Source: Minisyncoccota bacterium (GTDB lineage: Bacteria > Patescibacteriota > Minisyncoccia > Phycocordibacterales > PALSA-1337). Taken from it: a stretch of DNA of 53,958 nt. Below, piece by piece: positions 16,039-53,958 of this stretch. A model generated the notes under the pieces. That model had not been told where the DNA came from and did not search any database. It saw nothing but the letters and a program-made list of their open reading frames with translations. The DNA lies in the NCBI GenBank assembly GCA_035495115.1, contig DATJGJ010000014.1:1-53958 (forward strand). The letters are read 5' to 3'. Position numbers and translations under genes: made by a program. Each line of letters starts with the position of its first letter. Position 1 is the stretch's first letter.

Positions 16039-16224
16039 GCCAGACTTGGATTCGACCGCGCCTCTCACTTCGCTACCCGCTCCGTTCGGGCTGGTCACCG
16101 GCTCGCACCCGTAGGCGTGCTCGCCTACGGACTCCGCTACGCTCCGTGTGCTCCGCCGTTCGAATCCTGCGCCTGTCATCACTCACTCACTTCGTTCGTT
16201 ACGTGCTGCCAGACTTGGATTCGA
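16039..16224 (-). mobile_element. Miniature palindromic element downstream of tRNA-Gln, bracketed by a 17-bp direct repeat of the tRNA 3' end
   Basis: gccagacttggattcga at 16039-16055 and 16208-16224; internal IR ggattcgacc...gttcgaatcc and hairpin ccgtaggcg-tgct-cgcctacgg. Confidence 0.6.
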
Positions 16225-16276
16225 ACCAAGATACACAGCTCCAGAGGCTGCGGTCCTACCATTAGACGATCTGGCA
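16206..16276 (-). tRNA. tRNA-Gln(CTG)
   Basis: TGCCAGA/TCTGGCA acceptor, GCAGC-CTCTGGA-GCTGT anticodon arm, CTTGGTTCGAATCCAAG T-arm. Confidence 0.93.
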
Positions 16277-21935: not shown

Positions 21936-21993
21936 CAGTAATCCGTAATCAGTAAACGGTGACCGGGACGTGTTTTCTGTTTACTGGTTACTA
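21936..21993. repeat. Two facing heptamer arrays
   Basis: cagtaat ccgtaat cagtaaa cggtgac ... ttttctg tttactg gttacta. Confidence 0.6.
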
Positions 21994-22878
21994 CAACTCC
22001 CTCTCTGCTTCAATAAACATTTCAATATCACCCTCGAGCACCTTATCAACCGAAGAAGTCTCTACATCGGTGCGATGATCCTTGATCATCTTGTACGGAT
22101 GCAAGACATATGAGCGGATCTGATTGCCCCACTCGATAGCAGTAGTCGAAGATATCTGCATACCCTTCTCTTTTGCTTTACGCGCCTCTTCCATATGTTT
22201 CCAGAGCTTGCCACGGAGGATGTCGAGTGCCTTTTCTTTGTTCTGAGCCTGAGAGCGCTCAGAAGTTACATGGATAGATATACCTGTTGGCTTATGAAGC
22301 AAGCGCACTGCAGTTTCACGCTTATTCACGTTCTGACCGCCGGGGCCGCCCGACTTGGCGATCGATATCTCAAGATCTTTATCTTCGACTACCACATCGT
22401 CAGAAGAAGTCTTTTCAAATTCAGGGATGACTTCGACGAGTGAAAAAGATGTCTGACGCTTTTGAGCTGAGTTGAACGGAGAGATGCGAACGAGACGATG
22501 GACACCGGATTCATTTTTGAGCGTGCCATACACGTTTTTGCCAGTAATCTCGATAGTTATATTTCTGTAGCCACCATGATCATTTTCATTTGAATGAATC
22601 ACACCGAAGCTCCAGCCTTTTCCTTCCGCGTAGCGGCGATACATGCGCACGAGCATCGCCGAGAAATCCTCAGCATCGTCGCCTCCCGCGCCAGAGAGGA
22701 TGGAGAGGATAGCGTTGCCCTTGTCGTACTTTCCTATGCCCTCAAGGCTATCTTTGAGGTTTTGCAGCTCTTTGATAGCAGCTTGAGCTTTGTTCTTATC
22801 CTGCCAAAAATCCGCTCCTGCCATAGCGGCTTCGAGGTCGGCTATCTTCTGTTGGATTTTCTCTTTGTCACTATTCAT
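21991..22878 (-). CDS. prfB: Peptide chain release factor 2, short form with no frameshift
   Basis: [23 protein letters not shown] (RF2 SPF motif), [22 protein letters not shown]. Confidence 0.92.
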
Positions 22879-41731: not shown

Positions 41732-42526
41732 ATGAACATACTCAGGATTATGTATGAAACGATTCTCGAAGCGCTTTTTCCTTTATCTGAGACTGAAAAG
41801 GAGCTTTTTTCATGTCGGCCGTGTGATATTTCAAGTATTTTACCGCCATCACCGAATTATTCGGGCCTTGCAGTACCATTACCTGAAGGCACGTCGCTAT
41901 TTGCCTATAAAGACACGAGAGTTGAGCAGCTTATCTGGAACATCAAGTACAAGAAGTCCAGGCAGGCTGTTGAGATTGGTGGATATGAGTTGTTTGGAAA
42001 ATTATGTGAAATAAATATGGTGGCACCTGCTTCAGATTTTCAGGACACGCCGTCAAAGCCTGCTGGCTTTGCGGCTGGTTCTCAGTCGCCTACGCTCCTT
42101 CCGAAACGTCCTTCAAATTCCGAAGCAGGTGCCACTCGACTACTTATAATTCCCATTCCAATTACAAAGCTACGCCGACGCGAACGTGGGTATAATCAGT
42201 GCGAATTGTTGGTCGATGAGGTGGAACGATTGGATAAAGAAGCTAAATTTATTTCTGAAAATAACTTACTCATTCGTATGCATCATGATGGGCGGCATAC
42301 ATTAAAAGGACGCACGGACAGAGTCGAGAGCGCCAAAGGGATATTTGGAGTAGATGAAAGTACACTGAAAAAACTGACAGAAAAATATGGCGCAGATAAG
42401 ATTAAAAACTGTAAGGTAGTGATCATCGACGATGTTATTACAACCGGCAGCACCATGCGAGAAGCTATCGACACCATGAAAAAATCCGGATTCACGAATG
42501 TGTCCGGACTTTCAGTGGCACATTAA
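41732..42526 (+). CDS. comF: ComF family phosphoribosyltransferase-like competence protein with a ~39-aa insertion
   Basis: LIWNIKYK, IPIP...RRRERGYNQ, IDDVITTGST. Confidence 0.88.
   Translation: MNILRIMYETILEALFPLSETEKELFSCRPCDISSILPPSPNYSGLAVPLPEGTSLFAYKDTRVEQLIWNIKYKKSRQAVEIGGYELFGKLCEINMVAPASDFQDTPSKPAGFAAGSQSPTLLPKRPSNSEAGATRLLIIPIPITKLRRRERGYNQCELLVDEVERLDKEAKFISENNLLIRMHHDGRHTLKGRTDRVESAKGIFGVDESTLKKLTEKYGADKIKNCKVVIIDDVITTGSTMREAIDTMKKSGFTNVSGLSVAH
42020..42135. mobile_element. In-frame palindromic insertion in comF
   Basis: Perfect 14-bp terminal IR gtggcacctgcttc/gaagcaggtgccac; internal hairpin caaagcc-tgct-ggctttg; reading frame stays open. Confidence 0.75.
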
Positions 42527-50952: not shown

Positions 50953-51009
50953 GTGACGTGCGCAGGCACGTCACTCGCTTCCTTGCTCACTCACTACGTT
51001 CGCTCGCTG
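50953..51009 (-). repeat. Palindromic/GNA-motif element just downstream of tRNA-Ser(GCT)
   Basis: gtgacgtgc-gcag-gcacgtcac hairpin; ctcactcactacgttcg matches 16182-16198 at 16/17. Confidence 0.7.
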
Positions 51010-51096
51010 CGGAACCGGAGGGATTCGAACCCTCGAGGCCCGTTAAGGCCTGCCTCTTTAGCAAAGAGGTATGTTAGACCACTCCACCACGGTTCC
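51010..51096 (-). tRNA. tRNA-Ser(GCT)
   Basis: GGAACCG/CGGTTCC, CCTCT-TTGCTAA-AGAGG, long variable arm, G73. Confidence 0.92.
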
Positions 51097-51706: not shown

Positions 51707-51793
51707 GGAGAGATGGCTGAGTGGTTTAAGGCAGCGGTTTACTAAACCGCCGTTCCCTCACGGGAACCGTGGGTTCGAATCCCACTCTCTCCG
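51707..51793 (+). tRNA. tRNA-Ser with unusual anticodon ACT
   Basis: GGAGAGA/TCTCTCC, GCGGT-TTACTAA-ACCGC, long variable arm gttccc-tcac-gggaac, G73. Confidence 0.9.
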
Positions 51794-51808
51794 CAGAAAA
51801 AACTTGAG

Positions 51809-52680: not shown

Positions 52681-53958
52681 ATGCCCGTCATCACTCCTGA
52701 AATCACTGTCTCTGAATATTTCCGCCTGACGCCCATCCAAAAAGACGCCTTGAAAAAAATAGGCATCACCACGCTCCGCGACCTCCTATATCATTTCCCC
52801 GTCCGCTATGGCGACACAGCTGAAGCAAAAAATATCGAGACGCTCGGTAAGGGCGACACTGCAGTCATATTCGGCAAGATCACCAATCTCAAAGCGAGTA
52901 AAGGATTCAAGACGAAGATGACCATGGCGACAGCTACTGTCGAAGATGAAACTGGCAAGATCCAGTGCGTCTGGTTCAATCAACCCTATCTCGCAAAGAT
53001 GACACCAGAAGGTGCGATGGTTCGCATAGAGGGAAAGGTTTCGGAAAGAAGAAAAAAGGAGACGAACAAAGTACCCCCAGAAACTTCTTTTTCTGAGCGT
53101 AGCGGTAGCGAAGCGAGTTACGCAGCGAATGAAAAAGAAGTTTCTGTGGGTGCTGCCCGTCTCTATTTCTCCAACCCTAAAATCGAAGTAGTCGACAAGC
53201 TCCCTATCGGCGTTGGAGACTCCCTCTTCGGCGATACTGGCGAAGCTCATACCCTTTACCCCGTTTACCCCGAGTCGCGAGGCATTACGTCGAGCTGGAT
53301 GTACCACGCCATCCAAAAGCTTTTCAAAAGCGGTCTCCTCGACAACATGATCGACGTACTCCCAGGACACCTTCTCGTCAAATATCATCTGCCGAGCCTC
53401 AAGACCGCGCTCATCTGGATGCACACTCCCCTCAAACGCGAAGATGCGCTCTCTGCTCGCAAGCGCTTTTCATTTGAAGAGATATTTATCATTCAGCTCG
53501 GCAAACAGCAAGCTCGCAGAGAATATGAGAAACATCCGGCCTTCGTCATAGAAGCGGACGATGTCCATGTCCGTGAATTCATTAAGCGTTTTCCCTTCAC
53601 CGCCACTGAAGCACAAACGAAGGCAGTCGAGACTATCCTTGGTGATATGCGCCGTGAATATGCCATGTCGCGTCTCCTCGAAGGCGACGTAGGCTCGGGC
53701 AAGACAGCGGTGGCAGCTTCTGCAGCATATGCCATCATCACCTCGCGTCCACCGAAAGTCCCTCGTCTCGCTGGTTCGAACCCAAATCCACTTGCCAAAG
53801 GATCTGCGACAGCTGGCCAAGGTAACCTCCAGGTAGCATACATGTGCCCAACAGAAATCTTGGCGACGCAGCATTTCGAATCATTCATCCAATACTTTTC
53901 GTATATGCCGATACAGATCGGCCTCATCACTGGTTCTGGTTGCCGCAAATTTCCTTCA
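52681..53958 (+). CDS. recG: ATP-dependent DNA helicase RecG, partial (runs off the window end; absent from the ORF track)
   Basis: My translation from ATG 52681: LLYHFPVRY, WFNQPYL, YPVYP, FEEIF, T.AQ, RLLEGDVGSGKT, QVAYMCPTEILATQH. Confidence 0.95.
   Translation, partial: MPVITPEITVSEYFRLTPIQKDALKKIGITTLRDLLYHFPVRYGDTAEAKNIETLGKGDTAVIFGKITNLKASKGFKTKMTMATATVEDETGKIQCVWFNQPYLAKMTPEGAMVRIEGKVSERRKKETNKVPPETSFSERSGSEASYAANEKEVSVGAARLYFSNPKIEVVDKLPIGVGDSLFGDTGEAHTLYPVYPESRGITSSWMYHAIQKLFKSGLLDNMIDVLPGHLLVKYHLPSLKTALIWMHTPLKREDALSARKRFSFEEIFIIQLGKQQARREYEKHPAFVIEADDVHVREFIKRFPFTATEAQTKAVETILGDMRREYAMSRLLEGDVGSGKTAVAASAAYAIITSRPPKVPRLAGSNPNPLAKGSATAGQGNLQVAYMCPTEILATQHFESFIQYFSYMPIQIGLITGSGCRKFPS
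53078..53146. mobile_element. In-frame 69-bp palindromic insertion in recG
   Basis: Perfect 16-bp IR cagaaacttctttttc/gaaaaagaagtttctg; the loop holds GCGTAGC and GCGAAGC; exactly 23 codons. Confidence 0.8.

Follow-up and report, generated by a model that had tools for sequence, protein, structure and literature searches.

A palindromic insert in a patescibacterial recG gene and a putative family of in-frame hairpin repeats

A stretch of contig DATJGJ010000014.1 of a Minisyncoccota bacterium (positions 1 to 53,958; the whole of this 54-kb stretch is hereafter called the window, and loci of its relatives are designated by L-numbers) ends within recG, and in the 5' part of this gene lies an 85-bp palindromic element (53070-53154) through which the reading frame continues. 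How does such a structure come to reside in a protein-coding gene, and what keeps its two arms complementary? The original prediction, made from the sequence of the window, held that the palindrome is either recent or selected at the level of nucleic acid. The answer that appears best to us, and to which we assign a probability of about 0.7, is that the recG palindrome represents a degenerate copy, with an internal deletion, of a GC-rich hairpin repeat family that is dispersed in the genomes of Paceibacteria-type Patescibacteria and survives in disordered protein loops and beside tRNA genes, much as the Rickettsia palindromic elements (RPEs) do. Most likely, the palindrome is a decayed passenger that does no harm to its host gene.

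The palindrome and its place in RecG

The arms of the element are 24 nt each, lie 37 nt apart and are 92% complementary, with one G·T pair and one C/T mismatch; they include a perfect 16-nt core, CAGAAACTTCTTTTTC, and its reverse complement (coordinates of these and other features are given in Table 1). This is the longest inverted repeat in the window with arms at most 150 nt apart, and by our own arithmetic about 0.002 perfect 16-nt inverted repeats with a spacing of up to 150 nt would be expected per 54 kb. Folded as RNA, the palindrome reaches -49.7 kcal/mol (z = -7.3), and folded as DNA, it has z = -6.4; in neither case was any of 200 shuffled sequences as good. The perfect 16-bp inverted repeat and the 69-bp perfect-armed unit of the original prediction are, in other words, borne out. 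The unit, which had been said to span exactly 23 codons, has that length but starts at codon position 2, and the loop string that was given with it correctly contained GCGTAGC and GCGAAGC but lacked the first T of the 37-nt spacer. The further suggestion that stacked GNA motifs matter found no support: as mini-hairpins that might be the point of the loop they were considered and rejected, no support for a role of GCGTAGC and GCGAAGC having been found beyond their membership in blocks shared with related elements. Sequences resembling the arms occur elsewhere in the window at chance level only.

The host gene starts with an ATG at 52681, and its open reading frame (ORF) runs uninterrupted through the palindrome, reading ...MVRIEGKVS ERRKKETNKVPPETSFSERSGSEASYAANEKEVSVGAAR LYFSNP..., in agreement with the frame and the peptide context (between VRIEGKV and LYFSNP) that had been proposed. 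A homolog search recovered 7811 RecG homologs with PF17191 (RecG_wedge), PF00270 and PF00271, the nearest of which are labelled Paceibacterota, Taylorbacteria or 'Patescibacteria group'. The host motif WFNQPY aligns with WFNQDY, the aromatic wedge motif of T. maritima RecG (1GM5), which identifies the wedge domain, and the palindrome follows about 20 residues downstream, in the turn between the strands VRIEGKVS and LYFSNP. Across 120 homologs and 76 fetched loci, the loop at this turn ranges from 7 amino acids (aa; for example, ERRKTGE) to 95 aa, with 39 aa in the window. In an AlphaFold2 model of the window RecG, built on 60 sequences, the flanking strands (residues 113-122 and 161-164) are confident, and residues 134-158 are coil with pLDDT below 50; the insert is, therefore, predicted to be the floppy, disordered tip of a surface beta-hairpin, compatible with the fold. 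The original proposal of an in-frame insertion in a variable RecG wedge/OB loop, for which a structure prediction had been suggested as a check, holds up both in this model of a disordered loop between confident strands and in the short, hairpin-free loops of L078 and many other relatives.

Pairing of the arms in close relatives

The closest ortholog, at L077 (JAZKBV010000003.1; 91% aa identity, 84-87% nucleotide identity in the flanks), has a homologous, longer loop of 53 aa, the arms of which (AGCGCTGCCAGAAACTGCTTTTTC / GAAAAAGCAGTTTCTGGCAGCGCT) are perfectly complementary over 24 bp. The case that the original prediction had named as damaging to it, a close ortholog with a long homologous loop and no repeat, is not what this locus presents. 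Between the window and L077, 4 of the 24 pairs have changed on both sides with Watson-Crick pairing kept (A-T to G-C, C-G to T-A, C-G to G-C and T-A to G-C), and 2 further pairs differ on one side only, being Watson-Crick in L077 and a G·T wobble or a mismatch in the window. The changes in the arms alter both encoded peptides, from S to A in one arm and from E to A in the other, so that selection at the protein level cannot explain the double changes. Because the arms of L077 differ from those of the window by four compensatory double changes, palindromy has been maintained at the nucleic-acid level since the divergence of the two lineages, at about 15% of nucleotides, and is not just young. 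Of the two options originally put forward, maintenance at the level of nucleic acid stands and mere recency does not.

There is a third option beside 'recent' and 'selected', namely, hairpin-templated correction or re-copying of the arms. In quasipalindrome correction, or template-switch mutagenesis (the Ripley model), the arms change together, and imperfect repeats become perfect. In our view, it is such hairpin-templated copying, by template switching or fold-back synthesis, rather than selection on RecG function, that would have kept or regenerated the complementarity of the arms; it would yield double changes in one step and could also copy host flank into the opposite arm.

The same comparison bears on the reality of the element. 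Inverted chimeras are generally known from amplified or low-coverage metagenomes, and the palindrome might be suspected to be a chimeric inverted junction of this kind, an artefact of amplification or assembly. This is hardly credible, given that the orthologous element of L077 comes from an independent assembly and that equivalent in-frame hairpins, with the reading frame preserved, are present in dozens of assemblies from JGI, ENA, NCBI and Logan.

Other relatives have no element at all. L078, which is about as distant as L077 (89% aa identity), has a loop of 23 aa that does not form a hairpin (z = +1.4; loop fold scores are z values against codon shuffles, and the controls mentioned below are same-length segments from the same genes). 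The insert is absent also from L079, L080 and many other recG orthologs, and the element-free L078, L079 and L080 carry a GAAACTG-type sequence where one arm lies. These 'empty' alleles may represent the ancestral state or may derive from deletions in which one arm was kept.

Hairpin inserts at other sites and in other lineages

Hairpins recur at the same place in related Paceibacteria. Among distinct recG wedge loops of at least 29 aa, 15 of 18 are hairpin-forming (z from -2.9 to -10.8) and fold into near-continuous stems across the whole insert, compared with z of -1.5 to +1.6 for the controls and about 0 for wedge loops of at most 25 aa. All wedge loops recovered from the 76 loci are in frame and free of stops, and the remaining loci yielded no recG with a broken frame. 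RecG has a second loop of this kind, which follows the Walker A helix and precedes QVAYMCPTEIL. Its length varies from 12 to 69 aa; several of its long versions have z of -6 to -9, and in other lineages it hosts hairpin elements of the AGCA type described below. A pre-existing quasipalindrome, in which purine-rich RRKK codons would pair with the pyrimidine-rich LYFS codons, was considered as a seed of the wedge inserts and rejected, the mean z of 19 empty sites being 0.03.

In the window, the second loop (53743-53829) has about 26 extra residues (SRPPKVPRLAGSNPNPLAKGSATAGQ), which are not hairpin-forming, include the T-loop-like GGTTCGAACCC and are conserved in both L077 and L078. Downstream of LYLSNPEIKP, the distant RecG homologs L039 and L124 have yet another variable insert (…GNIGAGTKIGADGGIKIGTDIGEISGQG…), which suggests that RecG has additional permissive loops.

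The inserts have more in common than their ability to fold. A BLAST comparison between them revealed 41 nt that are 100% identical between L081, where they lie in the wedge insert, and L086, where they lie in the insert at site 2, that is, in different genomes and at different sites, the host proteins being far more diverged than this core; 23 nt of it recur, on the opposite strand, in an insert within the comF gene of the window. The common core consists of a 7-bp stem with an invariant AGCA tetraloop and, usually, a bulged A, after which the stem continues for another 3-4 bp. In 860 kb, comprising the window plus the loci, AGCA is the commonest loop among tetraloop hairpins of at least 6 bp (21, against a median of 2), and when the motif of 3 bp, 7 bp, loop, 7 bp, bulged A and 3 bp is searched with all 256 loops, AGCA accounts for 15 of the 49 hits. 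At least 10 different stem sequences of the core were found. A count of pairs gives 10 of 10 with double changes, but the sequences concerned were chosen as hairpins, so that this is not independent evidence. The ComF orthologs do provide independent evidence of covariation, because their inserts were located by protein homology rather than by a hairpin search: their apical stems (CAAAGCC, CGACCTC, CTGCGCC and CAACGCT) differ and yet are fully paired. By its flanking blocks, the core falls into subfamilies, with GCG/CGC in the recG wedge and recG site 2, GGA/TCC in the recG wedge, at a third site in recG and at one intergenic position, and CCG/CGG in comF; compact intergenic copies are located at L045 (156-242) and L047. 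Paceibacteria genomes of complete or nearly complete status in which such elements are present include OY969557.1 (876 kb), CAIMDG010000002.1, JAGOQK010000001.1 and JAZKBV01. The elements are richer in GC than their hosts, with 57% against 43.5% in comF and 67% in the copy at 16 kb of the window.

The comF copy of the window lies in an ORF for a ComF-family phosphoribosyltransferase, beside a type IV pilus / competence cluster, and is matched by a covariance model of the core at E = 4e-11, this copy having been part of the training alignment. ComF homologs are 213 to 314 aa long, the difference being a loop at one position, and the insert is absent from many of them. Many of the loops read (R/Q)DTPS..AAGS..PKRP(S/E)N, and others read FGPS...DGVS, which is the complementary strand of the element; in the DNA of four comF orthologs, the inserts form hairpins with z of -3.8 to -9.4, in either orientation at the same site.

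In recG and comF alike, the length of every hairpin insert is a multiple of 3, and the host frame runs through it without a stop. Only an element that is retained in the mRNA and read by the ribosome needs these properties, from which we infer that the insert would be translated, RecG tolerating the product as a floppy loop. The original prediction had mentioned splicing; more broadly, the insert could be an intervening sequence that is missing from mature RecG owing to removal from the mRNA (intron-like, or through RNase processing and religation), ribosome bypass or protein excision. The compact, strong fold exactly between two conserved strands is in keeping with this possibility, and ribosome skipping is exemplified by T4 gene 60 and the mitochondrial bypass elements. 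Nevertheless, it seems very improbable here: divisibility by 3 and freedom from stops would be needless in inserts that are excised or bypassed but are expected in inserts that are translated, there are no ribozyme or intron matches and no intein motifs, and 85-250 nt is too short for group I or II introns.

Together with the recG palindrome and the comF copy, the element on the flank of tRNA-Gln (hereafter, the 16-kb copy) makes three hairpin elements within 54 kb. The comF and 16-kb copies have the AGCA hairpin in common, and the covariance model of the core recovers the latter only marginally (E = 1.6). A direct repeat, 17 nt from the 3' end of tRNA-Gln (TCGAATCCAAGTCTGGC, at 16224-16208 and 16055-16039 on the minus strand), encloses the 16-kb copy, whose right arm is the 17-nt duplicate and whose left arm is an imperfect inverted copy thereof; the arrangement resembles an att-type duplication or an arm templated by the flank. 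The element of L144 also ends in a duplicate of a tRNA 3' end, and the 3' end of tRNA-Ser itself serves as the left arm in L081, with its inverted complement as the other arm. Within genes, the left arm of L108 consists of the conserved codons ERRAKKP, and the right arms of L093 and L096 include the GK-L codons, where a synonymous change of Leu from CTC to TTA is mirrored by GAG to AAA on the opposite side. In several copies, certainly, including those adjacent to tRNA genes, one arm reads as host sequence and the other as its inverted complement, but this is not a general rule. The stronger proposition that the arms always copy conserved host flank was rejected, the complementarity between flank and insert exceeding that in codon-shuffled controls only in L108 and L093 (and weakly in L096) among the recG wedge copies. 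In orthologous comF copies, the interior is conserved and the arms differ.

What, then, connects the recG palindrome with these elements? The blocks GAGCGTAGCGG and GGTAGCGAAG[C/T]GAG have just two occurrences each in the window, one in the recG palindrome and one, in collinear order, in the 16-kb copy, where both flank the hairpin with the 9-bp stem and the AGCA loop. A gapped alignment of the two elements scores 33.6, compared with 18.7 +/- 3.6 for shuffles. The apex block AGCGAAGCGAGT has 4 occurrences in 146 loci, where about 0.1 would be expected, all of them within or beside predicted intergenic hairpins; the loci concerned (L130, L081 and L007) represent three other genomes. In L130, the block sits at the apex of an 83-nt intergenic hairpin and 18 of 19 nt are identical to the recG apex, and in L081, the hairpin directly follows tRNA-Ser. 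On these matches, it is probable that the recG copy belongs to the wider family, and the copy reads as though about 58 nt had been deleted from its interior, between short AGCGG repeats.

If the block matches were coincidental and there were no repeat family behind the palindrome, its origin would be purely local, through an in-situ inverted duplication by template switching in a permissive loop of the common ancestor of the window and L077. We consider this unlikely. The arms are, to be sure, unique to the recG locus, and the element-free orthologs carry the GAAACTG-type sequence in the place of one arm; moreover, the family copies with an arm clearly copied from the host indicate that in-situ inverted duplication occurs. 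However, a local origin does not account for the two collinear blocks that recur in the 16-kb copy and nowhere else in the window, the reappearance of the apex block within or beside intergenic hairpins of three other genomes, or the presence of family-type hairpins in the same loop of many other lineages, and the empty sites contain no intrinsic hairpin that could have seeded such an event.

Quite unlikely, too, is a selected cis-acting structure of recG, be it an RNase III site or another determinant of mRNA stability, a translational pause for the folding of the wedge, or a DNA cruciform. Such a structure would fit the compensatory changes between the window and L077, the recurrence of hairpins at the same recG loop in many lineages and the location of all 14 AGCA hairpins in recG on the coding strand. 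It is at odds, however, with the absence of hairpins from close relatives with a fully conserved RecG (L078, L079, L080 and about 50 loci with short loops) and with the occurrence of the same element types on intergenic tRNA flanks and in comF, where both orientations are found. Furthermore, the sequence, length and position of the arms vary freely, and the covariance models of Rfam 15 yield no relevant match at E <= 10 over the recG element or related inserts.

Several observations weigh against our own interpretation. The recG copy has no AGCA hairpin (7-bp stem, AGCA, bulged A and a lower stem of at least 3 bp) and escapes the covariance model of the core, so that its membership in the family rests on short shared blocks. 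Its arms, searched as a pattern of both 16-mers with a gap of 25-50 nt, have no match in genome and metagenome contig collections. The outer arms of the elements are locus-specific, being unrelated among the three copies in the window, and there is no common terminal sequence; neither recG nor comF shows an evident target-site duplication, and no transposase domain was found among 50 ORFs of the window, so that mobility is conjectural. Nor was a RAYT gene found in the 54 kb of the window. The loci were gathered through recG and comF and do not give a genome-wide copy number; a profile of the insert peptide (GASIAQSQQALTRVG-type), run against 5.8 billion proteins, found none at E <= 10 and no further hosts, the motif being too short to inform; and translation of the insert has been deduced rather than observed.

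These points notwithstanding, we prefer to view the recG palindrome as a decayed copy of a dispersed hairpin family. In gene-dense genomes, such elements would survive where they do little harm, that is, in disordered surface loops of proteins and on the flanks of tRNA genes. The family would spread, or would once have spread, as folded single-stranded DNA, the loop and the bulge being recognized by some enzyme. Propagation in this form is suggested by the combination of an invariant loop with a bulged base, because the enzymes that act on hairpins of single-stranded DNA (TnpA-REP, the TnpA of IS200/IS605, IntI and relaxases) read determinants of this kind (PMC8266576). For TnpA-REP and the TnpA of IS200/IS605, recognition by way of a loop, bulge or mismatch is documented.

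A bolder version of this scenario can be put forward tentatively. The elements might constitute an undescribed class in which the internal core (invariant AGCA, covarying 7-bp stem and bulged A) is conserved and the outer arms arise afresh at every site by inverted copying of adjacent host sequence, such as tRNA 3' ends or conserved codons, with the recG palindrome as a decayed product. The arms could, conceivably, be made by fold-back or template-switch synthesis seeded by the core, or by pairing of a single-stranded intermediate with the target, with the involvement of an enzyme that binds hairpins of single-stranded DNA. If this were true, the mechanism of propagation or insertion would be unlike that of classical transposable elements of the miniature inverted-repeat type (MITEs), RPEs or REPINs.

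Table 1. Coordinates of the recG palindrome, its host gene and related hairpin elements (window positions unless a locus is named)
Feature	Position	Strand	Basis
recG, 5' 426 codons, runs off the window end	52681..53958	+	translation, RecG homologs, alignment to 1GM5
Hypervariable wedge-domain loop, residues 122-160, ERRKK...GAAR, 39 aa	53044..53160	+	loop lengths in relatives, AlphaFold2
Insert-encoded peptide stretch, PPETSFSERSGSEASYAANEKEVSVG	within recG loop		
Left arm (AGTACCCCCAGAAACTTCTTTTTC), perfect core 53078-53093	53070..53093	+	repeat search
Apical 37 nt between arms, 57% GC	53094..53130	+	
Right arm (GAAAAAGAAGTTTCTGTGGGTGCT), perfect core 53131-53146	53131..53154	+	repeat search
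Block GAGCGTAGCGG	recG 53095-53105; 16-kb copy 16134-16144	+; -	
Block GGTAGCGAAGCGAG, one mismatch in the 16-kb copy	recG 53104-53117; 16-kb copy 16064-16077	+; -	
comF-family ORF	41732-42526	+	PF00156, ComF names
Second family copy, 118 nt, in frame in comF-family gene, opposite orientation	42019..42136	-	fold z = -7.4
Arms of comF copy	42020-42040 and 42115-42135		
Core hairpin of comF copy, CCG CAAAGCC AGCA GGCTTTG A CGG	42050-42074	-	
tRNA-Gln	16205-16276	-	
Third family copy, 135 nt, 67% GC, intergenic, just downstream of tRNA-Gln	16041..16175	-	
Hairpin of 16-kb copy, 9-bp stem with AGCA loop, no bulge	16109-16130	-	
Hairpin elements with the same blocks, beside tRNA-Ser or tRNA-Ile in relatives	L081 1140-1230; L007 30-120; L144 18960-19090; L099 2440-2570; L130 6974-7056		

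Some other features of the window stand apart from the hairpin elements. Next to each other are tRNA-Ser genes with the anticodons ACT (51707-51794, plus strand) and GCT (51009-51096, minus strand; both ARAGORN), a pair that is conserved upstream of recG in the relatives L022, L081 and L099; A34 in a Ser tRNA would be unusual for bacteria. A release-factor ORF with PCRF and RF-1 domains (21991-22878, minus strand) matches the PCRF profile only from position 86, and its N-terminus may lie in another frame, as in a prfB-type programmed frameshift, or be absent. In a sliding-window scan, the AT-rich segment 23041-23200 (36% GC), beside a tRNA-Thr pair, has a fold z of about -5. The segment 6420-6620, inside a radC-like ORF, has a moderately strong predicted structure (z = -3.35) with no inverted repeat of the family type.

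Significance and likeness to known systems

The elements described here can be viewed as RPE-like in-frame repeats with a conserved internal core and locus-specific arms, apparently undescribed in Patescibacteria: a full-text literature search found no description of in-frame palindromic elements in Patescibacteria or the candidate phyla radiation. If this interpretation is correct, Patescibacteria would be the second, phylogenetically remote case, after Rickettsia, of selfish palindromic repeats written into proteins, and some of the insertions and differences in length that are so far unexplained in candidate phyla radiation proteins would be accounted for. Such inserts confound alignments, orthology calls and structure predictions, and the 39-aa loop of RecG, in particular, is very probably dispensable and not to be read as a functional adaptation of the wedge. 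The hairpin with the AGCA loop and bulged A offers a handle for finding the enzyme that recognizes it, and the locus-specific arms that mirror host sequence would provide a natural system for the study of the birth, growth and correction of palindromes in organisms with pared-down repair.

Among the known systems, bacterial MITEs (ERIC, BOX, Correia and QMITE) are likewise small and non-autonomous and can become fused in frame to ORFs of the host, but they have conserved terminal inverted repeats, target-site duplications and a related insertion sequence (PMC10969869). Here, neither conserved terminal repeats nor an insertion sequence were found, and no target-site duplication is visible at recG or comF, although the 17-nt direct repeat brackets the 16-kb copy. 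The resemblance to REPINs and REPs, which are mobilized by RAYT (TnpA-REP) HUH transposases, lies in the vertical persistence of hairpin repeats and in the maintenance of pairing by compensatory change (PMC3116915, PMC8266576); in REPIN hairpins, compensatory changes are common (PMC3116915). In addition, the invariant loop and the bulged base of the present elements fit the mode in which TnpA-REP and the TnpA of IS200/IS605 recognize folded single-stranded DNA. Unlike the elements described here, which are mostly intragenic, with non-conserved termini and an asymmetric core of two different hairpins, REPINs and REPs are extragenic and form symmetric doublets with conserved termini and a 5' GTAG; in our family, only some copies have a GTAG, which forms a loop. 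Template switching as in the Ripley model explains the joint change of the arms and the inverted copies of flanks, but it is a mutational process rather than an element and leaves unexplained the inner blocks that are common to unlinked sites and genomes. In yeast mitochondria, there are palindromic GC clusters, some of which are in frame and translated, and bypass elements, which the ribosome skips and for which being in frame is unnecessary. These, too, are GC-rich hairpins inside coding genes of a compact, AT-richer genome, although they belong to a eukaryotic organelle and are unrelated in sequence.

The closest parallel in behavior is provided by the RPEs (Ogata et al. 2000), palindromic repeats of about 100-150 bp that lie in frame in unrelated genes of a reduced genome, each adding a peptide to its host protein, and whose insertion has been judged compatible with the fold owing to a position on the protein surface (PMC10969869). 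In both cases, palindromic repeats occupy a reduced, gene-dense genome, with in-frame copies in housekeeping genes, and no transposase is known for either. The likeness is one of behavior, the two groups of bacteria belonging to different phyla, across which homology is not expected. Whereas RPEs supply the precedent for life within reading frames, the conserved part of the patescibacterial elements is the internal AGCA core, and their outer arms are specific to the locus, some of them repeating host sequence in inverted form; different subfamilies, in both orientations, occupy one and the same loop of orthologous proteins, and copies flank the 3' ends of tRNA genes.

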